NCBI GenBank assembly: GCA_046292055.1
Contig: JBKBRQ010000001.1
Span: forward strand, 24,108-88,107
Source of the DNA: Spirosomataceae bacterium
Lineage (GTDB): Bacteria; Bacteroidota; Bacteroidia; Cytophagales; Spirosomataceae
DNA: 64,000 nt
Direction: 5' to 3'
The notes under the pieces are model-generated. The model saw only the letters and a program-made list of their open reading frames with translations. It did no database searches and was not told where the DNA came from. Position numbers and translations under genes: made by a program. Below are positions 1,777 to 44,478 of this stretch, in pieces. Within the stretch, counting starts at the first letter, position 1. The number at the start of each line of letters is the position of its first letter.

Positions 1777-2450
1777 GTTATAATAACAACCTTTGAAACT
1801 CCAACATTTTTCAAAATTTGGGCTATCTCTTCTAATGTTGCCCCTGTGGTAAGTACGTCATCTACAATAGCTATATTCTTACCTTTCAAAATACCTGCTT
1901 CAATTATTTTGAAAGAACCCTTTATATTTTCAAATCTTTCTTGCTTGTTTTCCTTTGTTTGACTTACGGTCTCTCTTGTTTTCAATAAAACGTCAGTCAA
2001 AGTTTTTATTTCCAGCGACTCCGATAACCCTTTTGAAAATACTTCTGCTTGATTATATCCTCTTGTTTTTAGTTTTTTAGGATGTATTGGTACAGGTAAT
2101 AGGTAGTCCAATTTGTATTCTTCTACTTCTTTCTTAATTAACTTCCCATAATAGACACCAATATCATTTCCTATTTTCTCATTTGCTTTATATTTCAAAG
2201 CATGTAATAATTTTTGAACACCCGATTTTTTTGAAAACCTCACAAATGAGAAAATTTTAGCGACGTCAACTCTTCCTACAAACTTATTCTCTAAAGCTAT
2301 GATACCAACTTTATGTGTATCTGTGTAGGGTAGGTCTAATAAGCAACTTGTGCAAATCTGATTTTCATTTATTTGTAATTGATTTTCACATGTGATACAT
2401 AATTTAGGATACAAGATATCCAGGAGAGATTTGAACCAATTTGTCCGCAT
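1758..2450 (-). CDS. comF: ComF family protein (phosphoribosyltransferase domain)
   Basis: N-terminal Cys-rich CITC...CTSC and C-terminal PRTase motif IAIVDDVLTTGATLEE. Confidence 0.85.
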   Translation of the reverse strand: MRTNWFKSLLDILYPKLCITCENQLQINENQICTSCLLDLPYTDTHKVGIIALENKFVGRVDVAKIFSFVRFSKKSGVQKLLHALKYKANEKIGNDIGVYYGKLIKKEVEEYKLDYLLPVPIHPKKLKTRGYNQAEVFSKGLSESLEIKTLTDVLLKTRETVSQTKENKQERFENIKGSFKIIEAGILKGKNIAIVDDVLTTGATLEEIAQILKNVGVSKVVIITIATAY

Positions 2451-2482
2451 TTTACTTATTTATAGTTAATCATGACTTAATT

Positions 2483-2836
2483 ATGCAAGATATTGAAATA
2501 CAAGAAAATTGGCAAAAATTGATGCAGTTCTTCAAAAGTACAATTGGTAAAAAGCCAGCTGATTTAAAAGCAGTTCTCTTTTTAATTGGACTTCAGGAGT
2601 ATGGTAGGGGAGCCAAACATTTTTCAAAGGAGGAAAAGCAAGATTTAATGCATATTGCTATCTGTAAAGTTTTGAGTTTAGGTGGCTTTTATGAAATTGA
2701 TGGATACGATACCGATGGATGGCCTCATTGGAAATTAATAAAAAAACTACCTCCATTTGATTTAATTAAGCAAGAAATCCTTCTCAAACATTTTGTAATA
2801 GAATATTTTAAGAAAGAAATCGGTGTTCATCTTTAA
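2483..2836 (+). CDS. conserved hypothetical protein (~117 aa)
   Basis: Long ORF with coding-like composition. I chose the ATG at 2483 (MQDIEIQ...) because the track start at 2441 overlaps the comF start. No motif recognised. Confidence 0.55.
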   Translation: MQDIEIQENWQKLMQFFKSTIGKKPADLKAVLFLIGLQEYGRGAKHFSKEEKQDLMHIAICKVLSLGGFYEIDGYDTDGWPHWKLIKKLPPFDLIKQEILLKHFVIEYFKKEIGVHL

Positions 2837-2853
2837 CGTTTATAAACATTATT

Positions 2854-2882
2854 TGTGGATAACTTTCGATATTTGTGGATAA
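2854..2882 (+). promoter_or_regulatory. two perfect DnaA boxes (TGTGGATAA at 2854-2862 and 2874-2882), direct repeat with 20-bp period
   Basis: ATTTGTGGATAA occurs twice, 11-39 bp upstream of the xth ATG (2893). Both are 9/9 matches to the reverse complement of TTATCCACA. Confidence 0.6.
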
Positions 2883-2892
2883 ATTTCAAATT

Positions 2893-3657
2893 ATGCGAAT
2901 AGTATCTTATAATGTTAATGGTATCCGAGCGAATATCAAAAAAGGTCTTTTTGATTGGCTTTCTCAGTATCAACCGGATGTAGTTTGTCTTCAAGAAATT
3001 AAATTAGCTGAGACAGAACTTGTTGAACCTTCTATACAATCCCTTGGATATCAATGTTTTTGGTTTCCTGCTATTAAAAAAGGATATAGTGGCGTCGCCA
3101 TTTTATCAAAAATATCTCCTATTTCTTTTGATTTAGGAATGAACAACCCAGTATTTGATGCAGAAGGTAGAGTTATTCGCATCAATTTTCCCGAATTCTC
3201 CGTTCTATCTTGTTATTTACCTTCTGGGTCTTCTTCGAGTGAAAGACAGGATTTTAAAATGAAATTTCTAGATGACTTTTACGTTTTCGTTGAAAACTTG
3301 AAACAAAATGTGGATAACTTAATTATCACAGGAGATTTTAATATCTGTCATCAAGCCATTGATATTCATAACCCAGTAGCCAATGCAAAATCATCTGGGT
3401 TTCTCCCTGAAGAACGAGATTGGATATCTAAATTTATAGAGTTGGGTTTTGTTGACTCCTTTCGTTTTTTCACTAGTTCACCTCACCATTATACTTGGTG
3501 GACCTACAGAGCAGGTGCTAAAAGTAAAAATCTAGGTTGGCGCATCGACTATATTTTTGTATCAAATTCTTTAAATTCTCGCCTACAATCTGCTTCAATT
3601 TACCCAGAAGCACTCATGTCTGACCATTGTCCTATTTCAATTGAAATTGATTTATAA
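2893..3657 (+). CDS. xth: exodeoxyribonuclease III
   Basis: MRIVSYNVNGIRA..., ...SDHCPISIEI and the EEP-family layout. The ATG at 2893 is preferred over the GTG at 2875, which lies inside a DnaA box. Confidence 0.92.
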   Translation: MRIVSYNVNGIRANIKKGLFDWLSQYQPDVVCLQEIKLAETELVEPSIQSLGYQCFWFPAIKKGYSGVAILSKISPISFDLGMNNPVFDAEGRVIRINFPEFSVLSCYLPSGSSSSERQDFKMKFLDDFYVFVENLKQNVDNLIITGDFNICHQAIDIHNPVANAKSSGFLPEERDWISKFIELGFVDSFRFFTSSPHHYTWWTYRAGAKSKNLGWRIDYIFVSNSLNSRLQSASIYPEALMSDHCPISIEIDL

Positions 3658-3661
3658 TCTT

Positions 3662-6600
3662 ATGAAAGAGAACGCTAGTATTTCACCTATTCTTTTACAA
3701 ATTAAAGAGTACAAGAAAAAATATTATCAAAATCAACTGATTCGCGGGCTTTTTATAGGCCTTTCTATTATTCTAATTACTTTTCTTGTTATCTCTACAA
3801 GCGAATACTTTGGGCATTTCAGCCAAATTTTGAGGGCGGTACTCTTTTTCTTCTTTCTCTCTGTTTGCTCATACGTTTTTTTCTTCCTCGTTTTTAAACC
3901 TATTTTTTATCTCATTGGCTTTCGTAAATCAATTTCTGATGAAGGTGCTGCACAGTTAATTGGATCTCATTTTCCCGAAATTAAAGATAAACTTCTCAAT
4001 ACGCTTCAATTGTCATCGATGAATACTTCTGAGAACGATTTAATTCAGGCAAGTATTCAACAAAAATCAAATGAACTTACTGTTTTCAAATTTGACCAAG
4101 CGATTGATTTTACAAAAAATAAGAAGTTTCTTCCGTTCTTACTCATTCCTTTTTTTATCACACTATTCATTTTACTTGCCTCACCTAGCTTTTTTAGCTC
4201 AAGTACTGAGCGAATCGTCTATTTTAGAAAAAACTTTATCCAGCAAGCTCCTTTTAGTTTCATATTAAAGAATGAGAATTTATCCATCTCTAAAGGGGAT
4301 AACTTTACTGTTATACTAGGTTTAAATGGCTCTGCTTTTCCTGATGATGTCTATTTGGTTCATAAAGGTAGAAAATTTAAAATGGAACGTCTTTCGACAA
4401 ATAACACTTTCAATTTTACTTTTTCTACCATTGAAGATGACATAGCGTTTTATTTTGAAGCAGGTGGTTTCCAGTCAAACACTTTCAAGGTTACTGTTCT
4501 TTCTAAACCTACTTTAAATGGATTCCAAGTAGAGGTTAGTTATCCAGTTTACTTAAATAAGCCCTCTGAAGTTTTTCAAAATCAGTATGACTTCATCGTT
4601 CCTATGGGTTCAACTATTTCTTGGCAATTTGATGCAACTGATACCAAATTTATTGACCTCATTTTTGACAATAAACAAAAGACGAGATTAACGAGTGGAC
4701 TTTTGGGAGGCTATCAGTTTAGTAAAAAGCTCATTTCTTCTACTACTTATTCTGTTCATTTGGTCAATGAGGTTTCAAGTGCTGTTACATCTAATTTACA
4801 TCAAATCGAGGTTATTGCCGATGCGTATCCTGCCATTTCTTTAGAACAAACGATTGACTCAACTTTTTTCCAATACCTTGGTTTTTCTGGCCAAATTTCA
4901 GATGATTACGGTTTAAGTTCTCTTTCGTTCAATTATAGATTAGTAAAAGAAAAAAGTACTAGCACTTCTTCTTTCAAAAAGAAGTTCATCAATATTGATA
5001 AAAACAGTAAAACTCAAAATTATTCCTATTTACTTGAGTTAGCCTCAACGAATATTCAACCTGGAGATTTTCTTGAGTATTATTTTGAAGTAGGGGATAA
5101 CGATGGTTTGCAAGGTTCCAAATTTACTAAAACGAGTTTAAATAGATTCATTTTTCCTTCTAGTTCTTTATTGTCCAAGGATATTACCAAAGACATTTCC
5201 AACTCAGAGAATCAACTTGAGCGTATTTTATCTCAATCTCGAGATTTACAAGAACAGTTAAAGTCTATTCAGAACAAAATCAAGAAAAATGAATTTGACA
5301 ATACAGATAAAAGAGCTGTTCAACAACTTTTAAGAGATCGTGAAAAATTACAAAATGAGGTAAATGATTTAAAAAACAAACTCGCTGAATTACAGAAAAA
5401 GCAAGCTCTCTTCGAAAAGCCTAGTCCACAAATCACAGAGAAAATGCAGCAACTGCAACAAATTATCCAAGACTTACTTTCGAAGGAAGATACAAAACTG
5501 TTTGAGGAGTTAAAGAAAATGTTGGAAGAAAATACAGAAAAGGACTTACAAGACCAGCTTGATAAGATTCAGCAAAATGATAGAAATTTGAACAGGAATA
5601 TTGATCGTAGTTTACGGATGTTTAAAAATCTGCAGTTACAGCAGAAAATTGAATCCGCTATAAATCAGCTTGAATCTATTTCGAGTCAAGAAGATAAGTT
5701 AGCAAGTGAAGAAAAGGAGAACTTAGCGAGTGAGCAAGAAAAAGTGAATGATGCATTTGAGCAAGTAAAACAAAACCTTAAAAAAGCGGAACAATTAAGC
5801 AAAGAGTTACGGAAAGAAACAGATTTAGAAAAGGATTTACAAAGGGAGATTTCGAATGATTTAGACAAAATTGATGATTTAATACAAAAAAAGTTACCGT
5901 CAGAAGCTCAAAATCAAATGAAACGTACAGCTCAAAAAATGAAAAAAATGGCTGATAAGCTAGCTGGTGAAATGCAATCTGGTGAAATGAAACAAATGAA
6001 TGAGGATATCGATGCTCTTCGTGCTTTGCTTGATAATCTCTTGAAGTTGTCTTTTGACCAAGAACGCTTGATGAAAGAACTTCGCGGAATCTCTAAGTTT
6101 GACCCAAAGATTAATCTGATTGCACAAGAACAACTCAAGTTATCTTCGGATGCTAAAATGGTTGAAGATAGTCTTTATTCACTTGCAAATCGCGTTTTGC
6201 AAATACAGAGTTTTGTCACACGTGAAGTAACAACAATGCGTAACTCGATTGATGAAACTTTGCAACTAGTCAAGGATAAAAAATATCCTCAAGCTGCCTC
6301 AAAGCAACAGTTTTCCATGACATCAATCAATAACCTTGCTTTGCTTTTATCCGATACGTTTTCACAAATGCAACAAATGATGGCAAATCAAGGTAGTGGA
6401 AAAAGTAAGGGTAAAAATAAAAATCCTTCTAGTATTCCATCTTTTGGTGAACGACAAAATGATATCAACAAAAAGTTAAACCAATTACAAGGAGAACAAC
6501 AATCTGGTAAGCAACTTTCTCAGGAGCTCGTTCGTCTTGCTCAAGAGCAAGCAAAATTGCGTAAAGAACTTAGTCAAGCTCAACAGAAGTTAAAAGGTAC

Positions 6601-6943
6601 TGAGTTAGGAAAAAAAATTGGGGATGAGTTAAATGAAATCCAGAAGCAAATGGATGAATCAGAAAATGATTTAATTAATAAACGCATTAATCCATCTCTT
6701 CAAAAAAGACAAAAAGATGTTCAAACAAGATTGTTAGAAGTAGATAGGGCTCTAAAAGAACAAGAGCTAGATCCCAATAGAAAGGGAAATCCAAATTTTG
6801 ATTACACAATCAATAAACCTGCGGAACTCGACAAGTTCATCAAAAAACAAAACAACCAAATAGAGTTTATAAAAAGCATACCAACTAACTTATCACCTTT
6901 TTATAAAAGTCAGTCTTCAAATTATTTCAAACGAATCAATTAA
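3662..6943 (+). CDS. large membrane-anchored coiled-coil protein of unknown function (possibly DUF4175-type)
   Basis: Three hydrophobic helices in the first ~190 aa, a beta-rich middle, then ~500 aa of K/E/Q/L-rich heptad-like sequence. The DUF4175 label is only a recollection. The ATG at 3662 is preferred to the TTG at 3641, which overlaps xth. Confidence 0.75.
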   Translation: MKENASISPILLQIKEYKKKYYQNQLIRGLFIGLSIILITFLVISTSEYFGHFSQILRAVLFFFFLSVCSYVFFFLVFKPIFYLIGFRKSISDEGAAQLIGSHFPEIKDKLLNTLQLSSMNTSENDLIQASIQQKSNELTVFKFDQAIDFTKNKKFLPFLLIPFFITLFILLASPSFFSSSTERIVYFRKNFIQQAPFSFILKNENLSISKGDNFTVILGLNGSAFPDDVYLVHKGRKFKMERLSTNNTFNFTFSTIEDDIAFYFEAGGFQSNTFKVTVLSKPTLNGFQVEVSYPVYLNKPSEVFQNQYDFIVPMGSTISWQFDATDTKFIDLIFDNKQKTRLTSGLLGGYQFSKKLISSTTYSVHLVNEVSSAVTSNLHQIEVIADAYPAISLEQTIDSTFFQYLGFSGQISDDYGLSSLSFNYRLVKEKSTSTSSFKKKFINIDKNSKTQNYSYLLELASTNIQPGDFLEYYFEVGDNDGLQGSKFTKTSLNRFIFPSSSLLSKDITKDISNSENQLERILSQSRDLQEQLKSIQNKIKKNEFDNTDKRAVQQLLRDREKLQNEVNDLKNKLAELQKKQALFEKPSPQITEKMQQLQQIIQDLLSKEDTKLFEELKKMLEENTEKDLQDQLDKIQQNDRNLNRNIDRSLRMFKNLQLQQKIESAINQLESISSQEDKLASEEKENLASEQEKVNDAFEQVKQNLKKAEQLSKELRKETDLEKDLQREISNDLDKIDDLIQKKLPSEAQNQMKRTAQKMKKMADKLAGEMQSGEMKQMNEDIDALRALLDNLLKLSFDQERLMKELRGISKFDPKINLIAQEQLKLSSDAKMVEDSLYSLANRVLQIQSFVTREVTTMRNSIDETLQLVKDKKYPQAASKQQFSMTSINNLALLLSDTFSQMQQMMANQGSGKSKGKNKNPSSIPSFGERQNDINKKLNQLQGEQQSGKQLSQELVRLAQEQAKLRKELSQAQQKLKGTELGKKIGDELNEIQKQMDESENDLINKRINPSLQKRQKDVQTRLLEVDRALKEQELDPNRKGNPNFDYTINKPAELDKFIKKQNNQIEFIKSIPTNLSPFYKSQSSNYFKRIN

Positions 6944-6962
6944 CTTTATATTTAAAATACAA

Positions 6963-6978
6963 CGTTTCACGTGAAACA
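6963..6978. promoter_or_regulatory. parS centromere-like site CGTTTCACGTGAAACA (15/16 to TGTTTCACGTGAAACA)
   Basis: Direct match to the ParB/Spo0J binding-site consensus tGTTNCACGTGAAACa. Intergenic. Confidence 0.75.
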
Positions 6979-6998
6979 CATCCCGAAATAGGGCAATT

Positions 6999-7014
6999 TG
7001 TTTCACGTGGAACA
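6999..7014. promoter_or_regulatory. parS centromere-like site TGTTTCACGTGGAACA (reverse complement equals the B. subtilis consensus TGTTCCACGTGAAACA, 16/16)
   Basis: Perfect consensus, centred 36 bp from the first site and 17 bp upstream of the mnmG ATG. Confidence 0.8.
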
Positions 7015-7030
7015 GCAAATCAAGAAAAAT

Positions 7031-8893
7031 ATGTTTCAAGAGTATGATGTAATCGTAGTAGGAGGGGGGCATGCAGGTTGTGAGGCAGCAAACGCTGCAG
7101 CAACTATGGGTTCTAAAGTATTACTAGTAACAATGAACCTTCAAACAATCGCGCAAATGTCATGTAATCCAGCTATGGGTGGTGTAGCAAAGGGACAAAT
7201 AGTTCGCGAAATAGACGCTTTAGGAGGTTTATCTGGTGTAATCAGTGATAAGACCATGGTTCAATTTAGAATGCTAAATAGGTCGAAAGGACCAGCTATG
7301 TGGAGTCCTAGATGCCAAAGTGATAGACACCTTTTTGCTGCCGAATGGAGGGAACAATTGGAAAATAACCCCAATGTAGACTTTTGGCAAGAAATGGCTG
7401 TTGGATTGGTCATAAAGAATAATAGAGTATTAGGGATTAAAACATCACTAGGACTCGAAATCAAGAGTCGGTCAGTTGTTTTGACAAATGGTACATTCCT
7501 AAATGGAAAGATACATATTGGAGAAAAAAGCTTTGGTGGAGGAAGAACCGGAGAGGCTTCTTCAAAAGGTATTACTGAACAATTAATTGAATTAGGCTTT
7601 GAATCAGGGAGAATGAAAACAGGAACTCCTCCGAGAGTTGATGCAAGATCTTTAAAATTTGAAGCATTCACAGAACAAAAAGGAGATGAAAATCCCGAAA
7701 AGTTCTCCTTCTCTGATACACCAATTATTCAGAAACAAAAAAGTTGCTGGATAACTTACACGAATTCAAACGTACATGATATGCTAAGGACTGGCTTTGA
7801 TCGCTCACCTATGTTTTCAGGAAGGATCCAGGGTTTAGGGCCAAGATACTGCCCATCTGTTGAAGATAAAATCAATCGATTTGCAGATAAAGATCAACAC
7901 CAAATATTTGTTGAACCTGAAGGCTGGAATACAGTTGAAATGTATATTAATGGATTCTCCACATCTTTACCAGAGGATATTCAATACAAAGCTCTAAAAC
8001 TTGTACCAGGTTTTGAAAATGTAAAAATGTTCAGACCTGGATATGCCATTGAATACGACTTTTTCCCACCAACACAGCTTAAAAATACATTAGAAACACA
8101 TCTAATTGAAAATCTATACTTTGCCGGACAGATAAATGGAACAACGGGATATGAAGAAGCTGCATGTCAAGGCTTGATTGCCGGTATCAATGCACACAAC
8201 AAAGTGCATGAAAAGAGTGAGTTTGTGTTAAAAAGAGACGAAGCTTACATAGGTGTATTAATTGATGACTTAATAAACAAAGGCACAGAAGAGCCATATA
8301 GAATGTTTACTTCAAGAGCCGAATTTAGAACTTTACTAAGACAAGATAACGCAGATATTAGATTAACTGCCAAAGGATATGAGATTGGCCTAGCTTCTGA
8401 AGAAAGAATAAAAAAAGTGAATCAAAAGATAAGCAACGCAAACAACTTATTTGATGAACTTCAAAAAATTAAAGTAAGTCCGACGGAAGCAAATCCAATA
8501 TTAAACGAGCTTTCATCAACAGAGATAAGAGAAAAAGTAACACTTTATAGTTTATTAAAAAGACCAGAGATTGAAATTGAACAACTAAGTAAATTTTCAG
8601 TCGATATTAAAAACAGTTTAGAAGATTTTACAAACGAAGAGAAAGAACAAACATCTATCAGGGTTAAGTATGAACGTTACATTGAGAAGGAACTCCAACT
8701 AGTAGATAAAATGAAGAAATTGGAGAATTTAATCATTAATCCAGAATTTGACTACGAATCACTCACTTCATTATCTATAGAGGCTAGACATAAACTCAAG
8801 AAAATAAAACCAACCACATTAGGTCAAGCATCTAGAATAAGTGGTGTTTCTCCTGCTGATATTTCAGTACTTATGATTCATTTAGGAAGATAA
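7031..8893 (+). CDS. mnmG: tRNA uridine 5-carboxymethylaminomethyl modification enzyme MnmG (GidA)
   Basis: FAD motif [16 protein letters not shown] and full-length GidA-like sequence. The ATG at 7031 is preferred, because the track's TTG start at 6998 simply translates parS as MFHVEQ. Confidence 0.97.
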
Positions 8894-8897
8894 ATCA

Positions 8898-8927
8898 ATA
8901 GACCTCTACCAAATAGAGGTCTATTTC
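8898..8927 (+). terminator. intrinsic terminator after mnmG (ATAGACCTCT / AGAGGTCTAT)
   Basis: 10-bp stem, 7-nt loop, followed by TTTCAT. Confidence 0.55.
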
Positions 8928-8937
8928 ATATAAAACT

Positions 8938-10542
8938 ATGCATAAAGTAATTTTTTTTTCATCATTTATCTCGATTATATTATCCGGATGTGCACAATTT
9001 GTACCACCAACAGGAGGAAAAAAAGACACAACTCCTCCAAAATTGCTTAGTAGCTATCCAGAAAATAAAGCACTGAACAGTCAAACTCGATTTATCCAAT
9101 TGGAATTTGATGAAGCAATTGATGTAAACACATTAAAACAAGAGCTTTCAGTATCACCTGAACTAGAAGGTGGCTATGATATAAAAAGTAAATTAACCAG
9201 TGTAGAGCTAAAACTGAATCAAAAGTTAAGAGATAGCACTACTTACACATTTAACTTTAAAAATGGAATCAAGGATTTAAACGAAAAAAATCCAGCAAAA
9301 AACTTAAGACTTGTTTTTTCTACAGGTAATAAAATTGATTCACTCGGTTTAACAGGAAAGGTGATTGATTTATTTACCAAAAAAAATGTAGGTGAAACAA
9401 CAGTTGGATTATATGACTTAACACGACAAGATACAATTCCATATTACACGAGAAAACCAGATTATTTTGTAAAAACAGACAGTGCAGGAATATACAGATT
9501 TGAGAATATCAGAGATGGCTTATTCCGAGTTTTGGCTTTTCAAGATAAAAATAACAATCTATTACCCGAATTTGGAACTGAAAAAGCTGGGTTTATTAAA
9601 GATACACTAAAGTTAAAAACGCAATTTGAAGATAAGCAAATTGAACTTTTTACAGCAGATTCGGACACAGTTACTATTAAAAAAAGAACACCACGAGCGA
9701 ATACATTTATTCTTGGAGTTAGCAAACCTATTAAGGATGTACAGTTAGTATCAAAAAATGATTCAATAAAGTATTCATTTACAACTACGGAAATAACATT
9801 TTACAAAGATGTTAACAGACAACTAGATAGTTTATCCGTTCAATTGGTGGTTACAGATTCGACCAATCGGCTAAGCCACATAAATGAGAAAATTAAGTTC
9901 CTAACTAGTTCATCCACTAAAAAAACAAATACGGAAGTAAGTTGGACATCAAGACCTGAATCCAGAAAGCAAGTTGTCGAGCTAAATGAAATAAAAATTA
10001 AAACACAAGTTCCAATAGAAAAAATTGAAACAACTAAAATAGTAATACGGAAAGACACTATAAATGATATACCTTTTGAACTAACTAAAATTACAGACAC
10101 CGATTTTTTAATTACACTAGCCTCATCAATTACACAAAAAGAGAAAATTGAAATTAGTATAAATGATGGAGCACTGACTTCAGTTTTAGGAGATACCAAT
10201 ACAACTAAGAAAGTCGAGATAAATGTACTACCCAAAAGTGAAACCGGTCAACTCACACTTGTACTCGGAAAAGAATGTACAACTTGTTTTGTCGAACTCC
10301 TTGATGCATCAAATTTATCTGTTATAAGAAAAGAGAAGATACGGACGAAAATTGTCCTACCCAATTTGATCAGCGGAGACTACAGATTTAGAATCATTGA
10401 AGATATCAATGAAAATACGTTTTGGGATAATGGGGACCTCAAAAATAACATTTTACCCGAAAATATCTATTTTCATCCTGAAGTCATCAAAATAAAAACC
10501 AATTTTGAAATTGAGCAACAAATTGCCAATTTCCCCAAATAG
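8938..10542 (+). CDS. Ig-like (SbsA/Big_5-type) domain lipoprotein
   Basis: Lipobox ILSGC, then FVPPTGGKKDTTPPKLL, typical of Bacteroidota Ig-like-domain lipoproteins. The rest is beta-rich. Confidence 0.6.
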   Translation: MHKVIFFSSFISIILSGCAQFVPPTGGKKDTTPPKLLSSYPENKALNSQTRFIQLEFDEAIDVNTLKQELSVSPELEGGYDIKSKLTSVELKLNQKLRDSTTYTFNFKNGIKDLNEKNPAKNLRLVFSTGNKIDSLGLTGKVIDLFTKKNVGETTVGLYDLTRQDTIPYYTRKPDYFVKTDSAGIYRFENIRDGLFRVLAFQDKNNNLLPEFGTEKAGFIKDTLKLKTQFEDKQIELFTADSDTVTIKKRTPRANTFILGVSKPIKDVQLVSKNDSIKYSFTTTEITFYKDVNRQLDSLSVQLVVTDSTNRLSHINEKIKFLTSSSTKKTNTEVSWTSRPESRKQVVELNEIKIKTQVPIEKIETTKIVIRKDTINDIPFELTKITDTDFLITLASSITQKEKIEISINDGALTSVLGDTNTTKKVEINVLPKSETGQLTLVLGKECTTCFVELLDASNLSVIRKEKIRTKIVLPNLISGDYRFRIIEDINENTFWDNGDLKNNILPENIYFHPEVIKIKTNFEIEQQIANFPK

Positions 10543-10915
10543 GATAGTGGATAAGTATGTGTATAACTCTAATAAATACGTTGAAAACAAGTGTATAACT
10601 TTTCACTAAGTGTGTACAAACATTCTACAATGTGTATAAGTATTAAAACTTCTAGGTTATTAACATACAGTACACAGTCTATCCACGTGGAAAAAGTATG
10701 TGAATAACATAAATTAAATTGTTAATTAATAATTGGAAGTAATACACAAAATTTATATTTACTTTATTATCAACAACTTAATAGTGGATAAGATGAGTAC
10801 TTATTCACATCTGAAAAAATAAGGTGTGTACAAAAATGTATATTTAATCCACAATAAAATCTAATCAACATATCAACAGTCCTAATAGAATATAATAATA
10901 AAAATTTAAAAAAAT
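10543..10915. other. candidate oriC: DnaA-box cluster plus AT-rich unwinding tract
   Basis: 12 DnaA-box variants with 2 or fewer mismatches, in both orientations, between 10546 and 10853. A GC clamp sits at 10878-10882, followed by a 27-nt pure A/T run at 10889-10915. No ORF is present. Confidence 0.6.
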
Positions 10916-12721
10916 ATGATTGTTATTAGAGTATCCCTTATTCTTCTTTTTTGTATTTCTTCTTTATTGCTTTCAGGACAATCATATGATCTAGCGAAGG
11001 AATATTTAAAACAAGGTGATTTGAGTAAAGCAGAAAATGAATTTGAAAGTATTGTTCGAAAAAAAAATAATCTGGATATTATCTATCCAGATTATTTACA
11101 GTTGTTAATAAAATTGAGGAAATTTGAAAAAGCTCAAAAACTTATTCAAAGTCAAATAAAGACGAATCCGACCAAGATTACTTTTTACGTTGACTTAGAA
11201 AATATTCAATGGCTGATGAATAACATTGAAGAAGCAAAACTTACAAAACAAAGGTATATTCTACTTGCAAGTCAAAATGACCAGATGGTTTATGAAATTC
11301 AAAATAAATATTATGTCGAAGGTAAATTCAGTGAATTAGTGGATTTTCTTAAAGAAGTTCAGTTAAGTCAAACGATACCACATAAATTTGGAATTCAGCT
11401 TGCTCGTGCCTACTTGTTTAATGGACAAAAAAATAAAATGCTAACTGAATTATTAAATTGGGGTTTACTTAACGGAAATGTTGATTACATTCGAAATAAC
11501 TTAACTGATAACTTCAAAACAAATGATGAATTAGGTTTAGTAGAGAAAACCTTGTTTGATTTGATTCAGCAAAAACCAAATGAAGTTTTTTATAATGAAA
11601 TGCTGATTTGGTTTTACACAACACAAAAAGATTTTAAAAAGGCCTTTCGGTTTGGTAAAGCACTTGATAAGCGATTAAAACTGAATGGACAGAACTTGTT
11701 AGATTTGGGTTTATTGGCTTTTAATAATGAAGGGTATCTTGAGGCACAAGAAATTTTCTCATATCTAAGTCTGGAATATAAAAACACTTCTCTTTTTCAG
11801 ATTTCAACATATTGGTTAATACAATCGAGAGAAAAGATAATTAAAAATACATTTCCTATTAAGAAAGAAGACTTAATCTCGCTTAGGAATGAATACCAGT
11901 CGCTCAGGGCAACGATTATGCAAAATGCGGTGTCCTATGACATTACACGTAATTTAGCTCTGCTGGAGGCATTTTATCTGGACAATAAAATGGTTGCAAT
12001 CCAATTGCTTGAAGATTTAATAGCCAACCCTGATATAAATACGCTTTTAAAAGATCAATGTAAAATTGATTTAGCCGATATCTATCTTTTAAATGATGAA
12101 GCTTGGGAGTCGAGCTTATTATATATGCAAGTTGAAAAGTCGCAAAAAGAGAATCCATTGGCTGAAACAGCAAAATTAAAAAACGCCAAACTCTACTATT
12201 TCCAATCTGAATTTGAGTTAGCAAAAGAAATATTAGACATACTTAAAAAGGCTACAACAAGAGAAATCGCTAATGATGCTATTAAATTAGCTTTACATAT
12301 TCAGGAAAATATAGGTGATGATTCGGTTTCAACCCATTTACAAAGTTTTTCAAAAGCTGAACTACTCCTTTTTCAAAATAAATACAACGAAGCAGACCAA
12401 ATTTTAGATTCCTTATTTGCTGTCTCAAAAGAGTTATCTATTGCTGATGATATTTTATGGACAAGAAGTGAGATTGCCTTAAAATTAGGTAGGTATGACG
12501 CATCAATTAAGTTATTAGAAGAAATAAGTCAAAATTATGGGTTTGATACACTAGCAGACGATGCCGTTTATCAAGCAGCGATGATTGAAATGAATTATCT
12601 GAAAAACCCTGTTAGGGCAACCGAACTTTACGAGAAAATTATCTTTACATATCCAGGAAGTGTATTTACTGTAGATGCAAGGAAGAAGGTCCGAGAATTA
12701 AGAGGAGATAAGTTAGAGTGA
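10916..12721 (+). CDS. tetratricopeptide-repeat protein with signal peptide
   Basis: N-terminal hydrophobic leader, and repeated A/Y/L-spaced helical-hairpin pattern throughout. Confidence 0.65.
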   Translation: MIVIRVSLILLFCISSLLLSGQSYDLAKEYLKQGDLSKAENEFESIVRKKNNLDIIYPDYLQLLIKLRKFEKAQKLIQSQIKTNPTKITFYVDLENIQWLMNNIEEAKLTKQRYILLASQNDQMVYEIQNKYYVEGKFSELVDFLKEVQLSQTIPHKFGIQLARAYLFNGQKNKMLTELLNWGLLNGNVDYIRNNLTDNFKTNDELGLVEKTLFDLIQQKPNEVFYNEMLIWFYTTQKDFKKAFRFGKALDKRLKLNGQNLLDLGLLAFNNEGYLEAQEIFSYLSLEYKNTSLFQISTYWLIQSREKIIKNTFPIKKEDLISLRNEYQSLRATIMQNAVSYDITRNLALLEAFYLDNKMVAIQLLEDLIANPDINTLLKDQCKIDLADIYLLNDEAWESSLLYMQVEKSQKENPLAETAKLKNAKLYYFQSEFELAKEILDILKKATTREIANDAIKLALHIQENIGDDSVSTHLQSFSKAELLLFQNKYNEADQILDSLFAVSKELSIADDILWTRSEIALKLGRYDASIKLLEEISQNYGFDTLADDAVYQAAMIEMNYLKNPVRATELYEKIIFTYPGSVFTVDARKKVRELRGDKLE

Positions 12722-12766
12722 AAGGACAAAAAAAAGTTCATCAATGAAAGTATATTGTAGTTTTCC

Positions 12767-12774
12767 TATCTTTG
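12767..12774 (+). promoter_or_regulatory. Bacteroidota -7 box TAtcTTTG (accD promoter)
   Basis: Exact TAnnTTTG, 26 nt upstream of the accD ATG. Confidence 0.5.
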
Positions 12775-12799
12775 CATAATCATCTAATCTATTTATCGT

Positions 12800-13645
12800 A
12801 TGTCATGGTTCAAAAGAACAGATAAGGGTATTCAGACACCAACAGAACTAAAGAGAGAAGTTCCAGATGGTTTGTGGTATCAATGCTCTAGTTGTAAAAA
12901 TGTAATGCACACACGTGAACATAAACTAAACTCGTTTACTTGTATTCATTGCAATTATCATGAAAAAATAGGTTCTGAGGCTTATTTTCAATTATTATTT
13001 GATGAAGGAGTTTATACAGAAATAGACGCTACATTACACTCAGGAGACCCACTTCAGTTTATCGACACAAAAGCGTACCCTGATAGATTACGTGCAACAG
13101 AGGCTAAATCAGGATTAAAAGATGCTGTCAGAACGGCTCATGGCTTTATGAATGGTGTAAATCTAACCATTTGCTGCATGGATTTTGGCTTTATTGGTGG
13201 ATCAATGGGCTCGGTTGTTGGAGAAAAAATTGCACGCGGTATTGATTTTTCTATCAAAAATAAACTACCGTTTTTGATGATTTCAAAATCGGGTGGTGCA
13301 AGAATGATGGAAGCAGGCTTTTCGCTTATGCAAATGGCAAAAACCTCTGCTAAACTTGCTTTACTTGCAGAGAATAAACTGCCTTACATTTCACTTCTTA
13401 CAGACCCAACTACCGGTGGTGTAACAGCTTCTTATGCGATGTTAGGTGACTTTAACATTGCAGAGCCTGGTTCATTGATTGGTTTTGCAGGTCCTCGTGT
13501 AATCAAAGAAACTATTGGAAAGGATTTACCAAAAGGTTTTCAAACAGCTGAATTTGTATTGGAGCATGGATTCTTAGATTTTATTGTGGATAGAAAAGAT
13601 ATGAAAGATAAGTTATCGTCTTTATTATCTCTCCTTCACGCATAA
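12800..13645 (+). CDS. accD: acetyl-CoA carboxylase carboxyltransferase subunit beta
   Basis: MSWFKR start, Zn ribbon CSSCKN...CIHCNYH, and [11 protein letters not shown]. Confidence 0.96.
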
Positions 13646-13674: not shown

Positions 13675-13699
13675 TTATCCACATAAAACATGTGGATAA
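13675..13699. promoter_or_regulatory. inverted pair of perfect DnaA boxes (TTATCCACA 13675-13683, TGTGGATAA 13691-13699); also a hairpin that may terminate accD
   Basis: TTATCCACAT-AAAAC-ATGTGGATAA followed by TTTTATTT. Both boxes match 9/9. Confidence 0.6.
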
Positions 13700-13720
13700 T
13701 TTTATTTATCAACAAACTAG

Positions 13721-14878
13721 ATGAACAGACATATTGCAATTTTAGGTTCTACGGGTTCTATCGGTACACAAGCTTTACAAGTTATTTCTGAACACCCCGA
13801 TAAGTTTACAGTAGAAGTGCTAACTGCACAATCGAATGCTAACTTATTAATTGAGCAGGCAAGAGTTTTTGTGCCTAATGTTGTTGTTATCGGTGACGAA
13901 GCACACTATGAATTAGTAAAATCTAGCTTATCTGATTTACCCATCAAGGTATATACAGGTGCAAATGCACTTAACCAGGTTGTAACAATAGAATCTGTTC
14001 ATATTGTTCTTACGGCTTTAGTGGGTTATGCAGGATTGATTCCAACTGTTCATGCAATACGGGCAAAAAAACACATAGCTCTTGCAAACAAAGAAACACT
14101 TGTTGTTGCTGGGGAATTAATCACTGAGTTAGCTAGAGAAAATGGTGTGGATATTTTACCAGTTGATTCTGAACATTCAGCTATATTCCAATGTCTGTCA
14201 GGAGAATTTCATAATAAGATTGAAAAAATAATTTTAACGGCCTCTGGTGGTCCATTCCGGGGGAAGGATAAATCACTTTTAAGTTCAGTAACTAAAGAAC
14301 AAGCTTTAAAACACCCTAACTGGTCTATGGGGGCAAAAATTACCATTGATTCTGCCTCATTAATGAACAAAGGACTTGAAGTAATCGAAGCTAAATGGTT
14401 ATTTGATTTGGCACCAAGTCAAATAGAAGTAATTGTTCATCCGCAATCAATCATTCATTCTTTGGTTCAGTTTGAAGATGGGAGTATAAAAGCCCAAATG
14501 GGGTTGCCAGATATGAAACTACCGATTCAATATGCGTTAGCTTATCCTAATAGAATTTCATCTCTTTCTCGTCGTTTTTCTTTTACAGATTATCCAACGT
14601 TAACATTTGAGCAACCTGATTTAGAGACTTTCCAAAATCTTACTTTAGCTTATGAAGCTCTAGAAAAAGGAGGGAATATGCCTTGCATTTTGAACGCAGC
14701 AAACGAAATTGCAGTCAATGCTTTTTTAAATGATCAGATTTCATTTTTAGGTATGTCTGATTTAATTTCCAGTTGCATGCAAAAAATTTCTTTTATCAAG
14801 CAACCGATATTAGAAGATTATATTCAGACAGATGAGATAACAAGAAGAAAAGCAATTGAATTATTACAAAGTATATGA
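13721..14878 (+). CDS. dxr: 1-deoxy-D-xylulose 5-phosphate reductoisomerase
   Basis: ILGSTGSIGTQAL NADPH motif, and ...NKGLEVIEA... Confidence 0.97.
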   Translation: MNRHIAILGSTGSIGTQALQVISEHPDKFTVEVLTAQSNANLLIEQARVFVPNVVVIGDEAHYELVKSSLSDLPIKVYTGANALNQVVTIESVHIVLTALVGYAGLIPTVHAIRAKKHIALANKETLVVAGELITELARENGVDILPVDSEHSAIFQCLSGEFHNKIEKIILTASGGPFRGKDKSLLSSVTKEQALKHPNWSMGAKITIDSASLMNKGLEVIEAKWLFDLAPSQIEVIVHPQSIIHSLVQFEDGSIKAQMGLPDMKLPIQYALAYPNRISSLSRRFSFTDYPTLTFEQPDLETFQNLTLAYEALEKGGNMPCILNAANEIAVNAFLNDQISFLGMSDLISSCMQKISFIKQPILEDYIQTDEITRRKAIELLQSI

Positions 14879-15600
14879 AAAAACCATTTCACATAATTTA
14901 CGAAGACAATCACCTGATTTTAGTCAACAAAGCAGCTGGTGTTTTGGTACATGAAGATAAAACCGGTGATAAAACGCTAGGAGATTATGTAAAAGAGTAT
15001 TTAAAAGTTAAGTACGATAAACCAGGGGATGTATTTTTAGGAACGATACATCGTTTAGATAGACCAGTTAGTGGATTGGTTATTTTTGCAAAAACCTCGA
15101 AAGCTCTTGAAAGAATGAACGAGTTATTTCGCAAAAGAGACATTCAGAAAACATATTGGGCAATTACTAAGCGTAAACCAGAAAAAAAAGCAGGAAAATT
15201 AACGCATTGGCTTGTAAAAAATAACGAAAAAAATACAGTTACTGCTCACAAATTTGAAGTTGAAAACGCACTGAAAGCAGAGCTTAATTATAGATACTTA
15301 GGCACGATTAATAAATTTCACTTAATTGAAATCGAACCAATTACAGGTAGACCACATCAAATTAGAGTACAACTTGCGTCTATAGGTTGCCCGATTAGAG
15401 GAGATGTAAAGTATGGATACCCTGAAGGCAATAGAGATGGTAGTATAAATCTTCATGCAAGAAGAATCTATTTTATACATCCGGTAAAGAAAGAGCCAAT
15501 AATTTGTAAAGCGGCAGTACCTGAAATTTCTTTCTGGGAAGAATTTTTAGAGTTAGATAAAGAGGATGTTAAAGATGAAAACTTGGATTTTCTCTATTAA
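14875..15600 (+). CDS. RluA-family RNA pseudouridine synthase
   Basis: HRLDRPVSGLVIFAKT catalytic motif. ATGA overlap with the dxr stop. Confidence 0.88.
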   Translation: MKKPFHIIYEDNHLILVNKAAGVLVHEDKTGDKTLGDYVKEYLKVKYDKPGDVFLGTIHRLDRPVSGLVIFAKTSKALERMNELFRKRDIQKTYWAITKRKPEKKAGKLTHWLVKNNEKNTVTAHKFEVENALKAELNYRYLGTINKFHLIEIEPITGRPHQIRVQLASIGCPIRGDVKYGYPEGNRDGSINLHARRIYFIHPVKKEPIICKAAVPEISFWEEFLELDKEDVKDENLDFLY

Positions 15601-29167: not shown

Positions 29168-29183
29168 TGTTTCACGTGAAAAG
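29168..29183. promoter_or_regulatory. parS-like site TGTTTCACGTGAAAAG (14/16)
   Basis: Intergenic between divergent psd and the 830-aa membrane protein gene. The left half and core are perfect, with two mismatches at the right end. Confidence 0.5.
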
Positions 29184-44079: not shown

Positions 44080-44095
44080 GTAAACGTTATCTCAT

Positions 44096-44135
44096 AAAAG
44101 GGCTGTAAGATGATTTATCGTCTTGCAGCCCTTTT
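44096..44135 (+). terminator. intrinsic terminator (AAAAGGGCTGTAAGA / TCTTGCAGCCCTTTT)
   Basis: 11-bp GC-containing stem with one G-U pair, followed by a T-tract. Confidence 0.85.
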
Positions 44136-44478
44136 GCAATAAGATTAAAATTTGGACAAAAAATAGATGGTTTTTGTATCTATCAATGTGAAAGTCCAAA
44201 AAAAGGTAAGAAAAATAAAATTTCTTTTTTTCTTACAAGTAGCATAGAGTGTATCAATACTCGTAAAATAGGCTATTAATTAGACTTTTTTAAGAAATAA
44301 AAGAAAAAAATACAATCATTGTAGTATAAAACGTGTATCATAAAATAATCATAAATTTGAAAATTTTAGAATAATTATTAGTTTTGTACAAATTCTAAAA
44401 CCAAAAAATAAGAATAAATACGGTTTTTGACGAAAATACTTACCCATTTTACGAGTTAAACTCCTTTTCATACATATT

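Follow-up and report, generated by a model that had tools for sequence, protein, structure and literature searches.

A DnaA-box cluster upstream of a TPR gene as the probable, dnaA-unlinked replication origin of an uncultured relative of the Spirosomataceae

The described chromosomal origins of replication (oriC) closest to the locus treated here are those of Bacillus subtilis and Escherichia coli, together with several origins confirmed or predicted in the Bacteroidota. The incC region of B. subtilis reportedly carries a "basal unwinding system" (Richardson 2016/2019), which consists of DnaA-boxes #6 and #7, a GC spacer, DnaA-trios and an AT-rich 27-mer. Plasmids based on the oriC of Cytophaga hutchinsonii are said to have been reported by Xu et al. 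in 2012. The supplement of Pelliciari et al. 2021 lists the unwinding-module strings of origins from the DoriC database, written 3'->5'; boxes #6/#7 of B. subtilis have the layout TTATCCACA-AATCCACA-GGCC-(trios)-AT-rich, the spacer is defined as at most 16 bp and is typically a G/C cluster of about 4 bp, and the DnaA-trio is 3'-GAT-5', heading away from the boxes (PMC8287927). Within the Bacteroidota, Ori-Finder places oriC next to mnmG in Mariniflexile, in agreement with GC skew and explicitly away from dnaA (PMC11278836), and next to mnmG, again in agreement with GC skew, in a strain of the Bizionia/"Algorimicrobium" group (PMC12843772), while the origin of Blattabacterium has likewise been placed at mnmG (gidA) (PMC4009838). 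The oriC of C. hutchinsonii is described as experimentally confirmed (PMC3531139) and is the sole such origin that we found in the order Cytophagales. Here we analyse a stretch of 64,000 nucleotides (the window) from the contig JBKBRQ010000001.1 (assembly GCA_046292055.1, positions 24,108 to 88,107), in which a gap between a Big_5 lipoprotein gene and a TPR-repeat protein gene, at positions 10543-10915, is packed with DnaA boxes. We regard this gap as very probably the chromosomal oriC of an uncultured Cytophagales bacterium related to the Spirosomataceae. This particular origin is not catalogued; origins near mnmG and unlinked from dnaA have already been predicted across the Bacteroidota.

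The gap (373 nt; 23.6% G+C, the window having 34.5%) contains 8 DnaA boxes with at most one mismatch and 17 with at most two. An initial annotation, made from the letters alone, had listed 12 of these, and all of its coordinates and mismatch counts are correct (8 boxes with one mismatch, 4 with two); five further boxes with two mismatches, at 10657, 10686, 10740, 10862 and 10870, complete the set of 17. Chance expectation was obtained from 5000 dinucleotide-preserving shuffles of the gap itself, which contained on average 0.18 boxes with at most one mismatch (maximum 3) and 2.26 boxes with at most two (maximum 9), so that the earlier back-of-envelope value of about 0.1 was of the right order of magnitude. 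The whole window has 42 boxes with at most one mismatch, compared with 21.6 expected, and its densest cluster is the gap, the runner-up among windows of 373 nt containing 4 such boxes. The gap is also, as had been stated, the second-largest stretch free of open reading frames (ORFs), the largest being the 399 nt at 44080-44478.

It is extremely unlikely that this motif array binds another factor or represents a compositional accident of A/T-rich intergenic DNA. The low G+C content of the gap would fit such an explanation, as would the many boxes in the cluster which represent the TGTGTATAA variant instead of the consensus. Against this, the shuffles never produced more than 3 boxes where 8 are observed, the boxes are conserved amid diverged spacers, and more G+C-rich relatives carry the perfect box TTATCCACA at the same positions, where it is the commonest box variant (116 copies).

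The conservation is most clearly seen in close relatives. Homologues of the TPR protein show the organism to belong among the Cytophagales close to the Spirosomataceae: the nearest come from uncultured bacteria (82%, 76% and 68% identity, the best being from a metagenome-assembled genome named "Cytophagales bacterium", with 82%), and identity is about 40-44% with those of Arcticibacterium, Jiulongibacter, Leadbetterella, Emticicia and Lacihabitans. A four-way alignment was made of the window with L002 (82%), L003 (76%) and L005 (68% protein identity), in which synteny is identical and the gap measures 374 nt. In this alignment the boxes are conserved islands amid diverged spacers, with 68% of box columns invariant in all four genomes compared with 25% of spacer columns and 13% of the four-fold sites of the TPR gene. 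The last 54 nt, from a tandem pair of boxes to the ATG, are the most conserved part (87%; 47 of 54 columns). Of the two boxes of this pair, that at 10870 has all 9 columns invariant, that at 10862 has 6 of 9. Boxes of the distal (left) array mostly have 7-8 of 9 columns invariant, while those at 10611 and 10679 have 5. Ten of the 12 boxes listed initially are kept in the close relatives; the remaining two, at 10767 and 10825, may be chance matches.

The right end of the gap has the layout of an unwinding module. An abutting tandem pair of boxes in fixed orientation adjoins the prospective unwinding site, oriented to the A/T tract as in B. subtilis and followed, as there, by a 4-nt G/C spacer; the module strings are TTATCCACA-AATCCACA-GGCC in B. 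subtilis, TAATCAACA-TATCAACA-GTCC in the window and TTATTCACA-AATCCACA-GGCA in Dyadobacter. The spacer GTCC falls within the published definition both in length and as a G/C cluster. The initial annotation had correctly located AGTCC at 10878-10882 and a pure A/T run from 10889; counting the AT of the TPR start codon, this run extends to 10917 and comprises 29 nt. The window has no longer pure A/T run, and only one 40-bp stretch in it is less stable than the A/T tract at the end of the gap.

The DnaA-trios are a different matter. The layout of trios and unwinding element proposed initially stands for the A/T tract and the spacer; it does not stand for the trios TAA-TAG-AAT-ATA-ATA-ATA, which are on the non-canonical strand, having been read 5'->3' on the top strand away from the boxes, whereas the published trio is on the complementary strand. 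A basal unwinding system calls for three or more NAN trios in a row (consensus 3'-GAT-5'), located on the strand bearing 3'-AATAGGTGT-5'. On this strand the box pair is followed by CAG-GAT-TAT at offset 0, overlapping the GC spacer, and by TAT-TAT-TAT at offset 13, which is the bare minimum for trios in A/T-rich DNA. B. subtilis, in contrast, has at least six canonical-strand trios (3'-GAT-5'), where the window has only CAG-GAT-TAT and its A-rich strand is the opposite one. Since A-rich triplets of the TAA/TAG type lie opposite to the strand used in B. subtilis, and only two or three canonical trios are conserved, DnaA might engage the other strand. It is conceivable, if unlikely, that the Spirosomataceae origin is non-canonical in this sense, with DnaA acting on the other strand or by an E. 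coli-like route (T-rich strand, TTATT), and that it is in addition a composite origin, in which initiation would be tied to transcription running through the element or to reservoir sites for DnaA (between accD and dxr, and upstream of xth). The unwinding element runs directly into the start of the conserved, secreted TPR gene.

The oriC of E. coli (gidA/mnmG-mioC) is like the window in being unlinked from dnaA, in lying near mnmG and in having opposed DnaA-box arrays; in contrast to that of B. subtilis, the proposed origin of the window is not beside dnaA/dnaN. In E. coli, too, the T-rich strand of the unwinding element is 5' of a TGTGGATAA-oriented box, and the string TATTAGGA is common to both. 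The T-rich bottom strand of the window, with TTATT motifs 5' of TGTGGATAA-oriented boxes, is in this respect closer to the E. coli arrangement. However, the gap contains neither GATC nor 13-mer repeats, mnmG reads towards the origin where that of E. coli reads away from it, and, unlike in E. coli, the Big_5 gene stands between mnmG and the origin. The resemblance to an E. coli-type oriC is positional only. The mnmG-adjacent origins predicted in the Flavobacteriales show a pattern like that of the window at the level of the phylum; they belong to another order, and the likeness noted is one of position.

A more direct link is provided by the DoriC strings. That of Dyadobacter fermentans DSM 18053 (ORI93030263) matches positions 9891-9922 of the D. 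beijingensis locus (L084) with 1 mismatch in 32, and it also matches four other Dyadobacter loci, all matches being inside the orthologous gap, so that for this family the locus is already among the oriC predictions of DoriC. The predicted oriC of D. fermentans lies, as in the window, directly upstream of the TPR gene and downstream of mnmG-Big_5, and has the same layout of tandem box pair, spacer and A/T tract. The differences are that the window comes from another genus with a much more A/T-rich genome and has no perfect box in the cluster. For the strings of Leadbetterella byssophila, Runella slithyformis, Spirosoma linguale and Cytophaga hutchinsonii, no match with up to 6 substitutions was found in the collected loci, and this includes the one origin from the same order that is described as confirmed. 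The Leadbetterella string, a possible orthologue of the module in L009 (…CACT TATNCACN…), resembles it in layout but is not a close match.

The pattern extends throughout the Spirosomataceae, as judged from 80 further loci, one genome per species, from genera including Emticicia, Lacihabitans, Leadbetterella, Jiulongibacter, Arcticibacterium, Siphonobacter, Larkinella, Dyadobacter and Runella. In the 400 nt preceding the TPR gene, 81 distinct loci have 14.5 boxes per kb, compared with 0.2-0.7 in most other bins, and 71 of the 81 have at least three boxes there. When the comparison is confined to intergenic DNA, the orthologous gap has 15.0 boxes per kb against 0.6 in other intergenic DNA and in coding sequence; the density of about 15 per kb is based on 75-81 relatives. 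In one complete relative, CP029480.1, the orthologous gap is at about 4,160,164-4,160,559. The linkage of the gap to the TPR gene is conserved throughout the family, and an unbiased search for enriched 8-mers returned almost solely DnaA-box words with the core TCCACA (25-70 fold). The tandem pair (at most 4 mismatches in total) is present in 79 of 83 loci and is followed by G-N-C-N, by TAATA(A/G)…, by an A/T-rich tract and then by the TPR start codon; position 1 of the spacer is G in 84% and position 3 is C in 65%. The two ends of the cluster are also distinguished by orientation: the abutting pair at the right end always has the TTATCCACA orientation, while the boxes of the distal array, 260-360 nt from it, are TGTGGATAA-oriented in a ratio of 180:4 family-wide.

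An independent line of evidence is the strand composition, measured as G versus C at four-fold degenerate third positions. Over the 64-kb window this GC skew changes from -0.172 left of the gap to +0.172 right of it. On the left, all five large + strand genes are individually negative, and the four nearest the gap (xth to Big_5) have a skew of -0.194 (n=201; Fisher test of left versus right, p=1.3e-6). On the right, genes on the + strand have +0.179 (n=1062) and those on the - strand -0.150 on their own coding strand (n=367); as these are opposite in sign, the bias tracks the replication strand and not transcription, the replication-linked skew of the top strand being about +0.165 and the effect of transcription near zero. 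The change of the top strand from negative to positive identifies an origin, not a terminus, and a recent inversion breakpoint is disfavoured by the synteny conserved across the family. The cumulative four-fold skew has its minimum at 10936, and the maximum-likelihood change point is at 10936-10996, with a 2-log-unit support interval of 10344-13270. In the close relatives L002, L003 and L005 the signs are distributed as in the window. Of 78 loci, 63 have a negative left flank and 60 have a higher value on the right flank than on the left (Wilcoxon p=1.7e-8). No consistent pattern emerged from AT skew at four-fold sites. Raw GC skew in 2-kb sliding windows, with a cumulative minimum near 4-5 kb, was tried and dropped, being confounded by coding-strand composition.

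The skew also bears on the possibility that DnaA binds the cluster for purposes of regulation or titration, or that the cluster is a former or secondary origin that now serves as a DnaA-controlled TPR promoter region, with initiation occurring elsewhere, for example beside dnaA. There are reasons for taking this seriously, as the A/T tract abuts the TPR start codon, so that the gap must hold or pass the transcription signals of that gene, and as oriCII of Pseudomonas aeruginosa, a box cluster upstream of gidA, is described as regulating transcription and not initiating replication (PMC13438810). We nevertheless consider it improbable. A promoter or titration site would not cause the four-fold GC skew to flip at the gap in the direction of an origin, the combination of tandem pair, spacer and A/T tract found in 79 of 83 loci is an unwinding architecture, DoriC, which also draws on the Z-curve, picks the orthologous gap in D. 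fermentans, and parS sites are nearby.

As to the latter, the initial annotation had noted consensus parS close to mnmG, and there are in fact two sites, 36 nt apart, of which that at 6999-7014 is perfect and that at 6963-6978 has one mismatch. Sites with at most one mismatch lie upstream of mnmG in 48 of 75 relatives. The start codon listed for the ORF at 6998 (TTG MFHVEQ…) represents a read-through of parS; mnmG itself probably starts at the ATG near 7031. Another parS-like site, weaker and with 2 mismatches, was seen at 29168-29183. The gap starts 1.65 kb downstream of mnmG.

The initial statement that dnaA is absent from the window was borne out by tblastn with a query of DnaA domains III-IV, which was checked by Pfam (Bac_DnaA 5e-59, Bac_DnaA_C 1e-33). 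It detected no dnaA homologue in the 64-kb window, nor in any of 89 loci comprising 10 kb on each side of the TPR gene. Any dnaA must thus be at least 10 kb away from the origin to the left, or at least 53 kb away to the right.

Perfect DnaA boxes do occur in the vicinity, within 8 kb on both sides as had been reported, at 2854, 2874, 3309, 13675 and 13691. The triplet in the 75-nt gap between accD and dxr consists, within 40 nt, of TTATCCACA, 7 nt, TGTGGATAA, 6 nt and TTATCAACA; its two perfect boxes are kept in L002, L003 and L005 and are absent in L006-L008. It may be a satellite DnaA site or may serve the control of dxr by DnaA. In addition to the two boxes upstream of xth, a third perfect box is found inside this gene at 3309-3317 and is conserved in close relatives. 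It might be argued that initiation occurs at one of these satellite sites (13675-13714 or 2854-2882) and that the cluster is an auxiliary DnaA reservoir, given that they contain the only perfect TTATCCACA boxes near the gap, conserved in close relatives, and that the support interval of the skew extends to 13270, close to the accD-dxr gap. This is very improbable. The satellite sites comprise 2-3 boxes in 30-75 nt without a long A/T tract, and neither L006-L008 nor most of the family have them. The 2-unit support interval ends shortly before the accD-dxr site. For the site upstream of xth, the negative skew of xth, DUF4175, mnmG and Big_5 puts the switch to the right of 2882, and xth and DUF4175 are still significantly negative when pooled over four genomes.

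Several observations weigh against an origin in the gap. As the initial annotation conceded, the cluster has no box of perfect consensus, the perfect ones being 2.8 kb and 7.7 kb away. The canonical-strand DnaA-trios are minimal, three in number and overlapping the spacer. Gene orientation, also recognised from the outset as a difficulty, is unfavourable: all genes around the gap are on the + strand, and the five on the left (the 131-aa ORF, xth, DUF4175, mnmG and Big_5; 2441-10542) read towards it, which leaves about 8 kb of genes head-on to the proposed origin. The skew switch is centred on the gap but is placed only to within a few kb (about 10.3-13.3 kb), and the skew measurements cover the 64-kb window, with just 10.5 kb left of the gap, and 10-kb flanks in the relatives. 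In the pooled data of four genomes the genes nearest the gap have skews near zero (mnmG -0.06, Big_5 -0.09, TPR +0.04, accD -0.03), while those farther out have -0.41 (xth) and -0.24 (DUF4175) on the left and +0.22 (dxr) and +0.13 (rluC) on the right. Finally, relatives from Emticicia and Larkinella have no clear skew switch within 10 kb on either side. Set against these points, the skew, the footprinting, the conservation in the family, the DoriC match, parS and the absence of a linked dnaA support the dnaA-unlinked chromosomal origin that had been proposed. What the data show directly is the box cluster with its statistics, its conservation, the layout of the module, the compositional switch and the orthology to a DoriC prediction; the binding of DnaA, the site and strand of unwinding and actual initiation at the gap are inferred.

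By analogy with the basal unwinding system of B. subtilis, an origin in the gap could operate as follows. DnaA would occupy about 15 conserved boxes as two opposed arrays, the distal one (10546-10707) mostly in the TGTGNATAA orientation and the proximal tandem pair (10862-10878) in the TTATCCACA orientation. The pair, separated from the A/T tract by the 4-nt GTCC, would steer a DnaA oligomer onto the unwinding element (10883-10917), and this oligomer might extend from the pair on the adjacent single strand and so open the element, while the distal, oppositely oriented array would supply further DnaA. Once the duplex is open, the helicase would load and forks would leave bidirectionally.

The assignment overturns nothing, as the orthologous locus is already in origin databases, but it places the replication origin of an uncultured Cytophagales lineage. 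It can be used to estimate growth rates from metagenomic read depth, to orient and rotate assemblies and to build oriC shuttle plasmids as in Cytophaga hutchinsonii. It also provides a comparative set of about 80 Spirosomataceae origins with a common module in the same position upstream of the TPR gene, and with parS near mnmG in about two-thirds. The B. subtilis-type layout of the box pair persists here in a phylum in which hardly any origin has been studied experimentally, and the locus is a defined substrate for asking whether DnaA-trios, and on which strand, matter in the Bacteroidota.

Table 1. Features of the proposed origin and its surroundings, in window coordinates (a point in the strand column marks features not assigned to a strand)
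Feature	Positions	Strand	Remarks
131-aa ORF	first of five genes in 2441..10542	+	transcribed towards the proposed origin
Two direct perfect TGTGGATAA boxes, 20 nt apart	2854..2882	-	just upstream of xth; conserved in L002-L005
xth	2875-3657	+	
DUF4175 protein gene	3641-6943	+	
Two parS sites, CGTTTCACGTGAAACA and TGTTTCACGTGGAACA	6963..7014	+	upstream of mnmG, 3.5 kb from the gap
mnmG (gidA)	about 7031-8893	+	origin-indicator gene, reads towards the gap; Pfam GIDA on orthologues
Big_5 lipoprotein gene	8938..10542	+	left neighbour of the proposed origin
Proposed oriC core (DnaA-box cluster and unwinding element)	10543..10915	.	fills the whole Big_5-TPR intergenic gap
Distal (left) box array	10546..10707	-	10546, 10558, 10590, 10611, 10631, 10686 and 10699 in TGTGNATAA orientation on the top strand
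Overlapping palindromic box pair cTATCCACGTGGAaAA (TATCCACGTGGATAA in relatives)	10679..10694	.	
Central and right boxes	10740..10853		10740(+), 10767(+), 10783(-), 10801(+), 10825(-), 10845(+)
Abutting tandem DnaA-box pair TAATCAACA+TATCAACA	10862..10878	+	TTATCCACA orientation, beside the unwinding element
G/C spacer GTCC	10879..10882	+	family consensus G-N-C-N
A/T-rich putative DNA-unwinding element	10883..10917	.	TAATAG, then pure A/T (10889-10917) into the ATG of the TPR gene
TPR-repeat protein gene, 601 aa	10916..12721	+	right neighbour of the proposed origin; start codon abuts the unwinding element
accD	12800-13645	+	
Satellite DnaA-box triplet	13675..13714	.	accD-dxr gap (75 nt)
dxr	13721-14878	+	
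Pseudouridine synthase gene	14875-15600	+	

Within the distal array, the boxes at 10657 and 10679 have the opposite orientation to the rest. The palindromic pair at 10679-10694, in the middle of the proposed origin, has the form TATCCACGTGGA(A/T)AA, and its core CCACGTGG resembles the centre of parS. The sole clear word other than a DnaA box near the top of the 8-mer list was ATTAACGT/ACGTTAAT, which 26 of the 78 loci analysed have in their origin gaps, at an enrichment of about 34-fold.

A non-coding RNA in the gap was rejected as a candidate, there being no match to an Rfam family. Matches to σ70-type promoters in the gap were no commoner than in shuffles, the scan being one that does not cover promoters of Bacteroidota. 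The larger ORF-free stretch at 44080-44478 begins with a G+C-rich, terminator-like hairpin and then becomes A/T-rich; it contains no DnaA-box cluster and no Rfam match.

A bipartite origin was also considered, as boxes appeared enriched 1.6-3.2 kb downstream of the TPR start, and was dropped when restriction to intergenic DNA left a modest 3.4 boxes per kb in the first intergenic region after the TPR gene. Of 73 loci, 50 lack any box in this region and 65 lack any in the second intergenic region. The apparent secondary enrichment was inflated by the Emticicia loci (L024-L060), where box-like words occur inside a 427-aa ORF at about +2.6 to +3.1 kb from the TPR start. By its position this ORF corresponds to the M48/MORN gene of L006-L008, and the words are probably a by-product of a repeated coding motif, not binding sites. 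In L067-L088 (Larkinella, Dyadobacter, Ravibacter) many contigs break off at equivalent points, 3.5-5.5 kb beyond the TPR gene, which suggests an assembly-breaking repeat near the origin, perhaps an rRNA operon.

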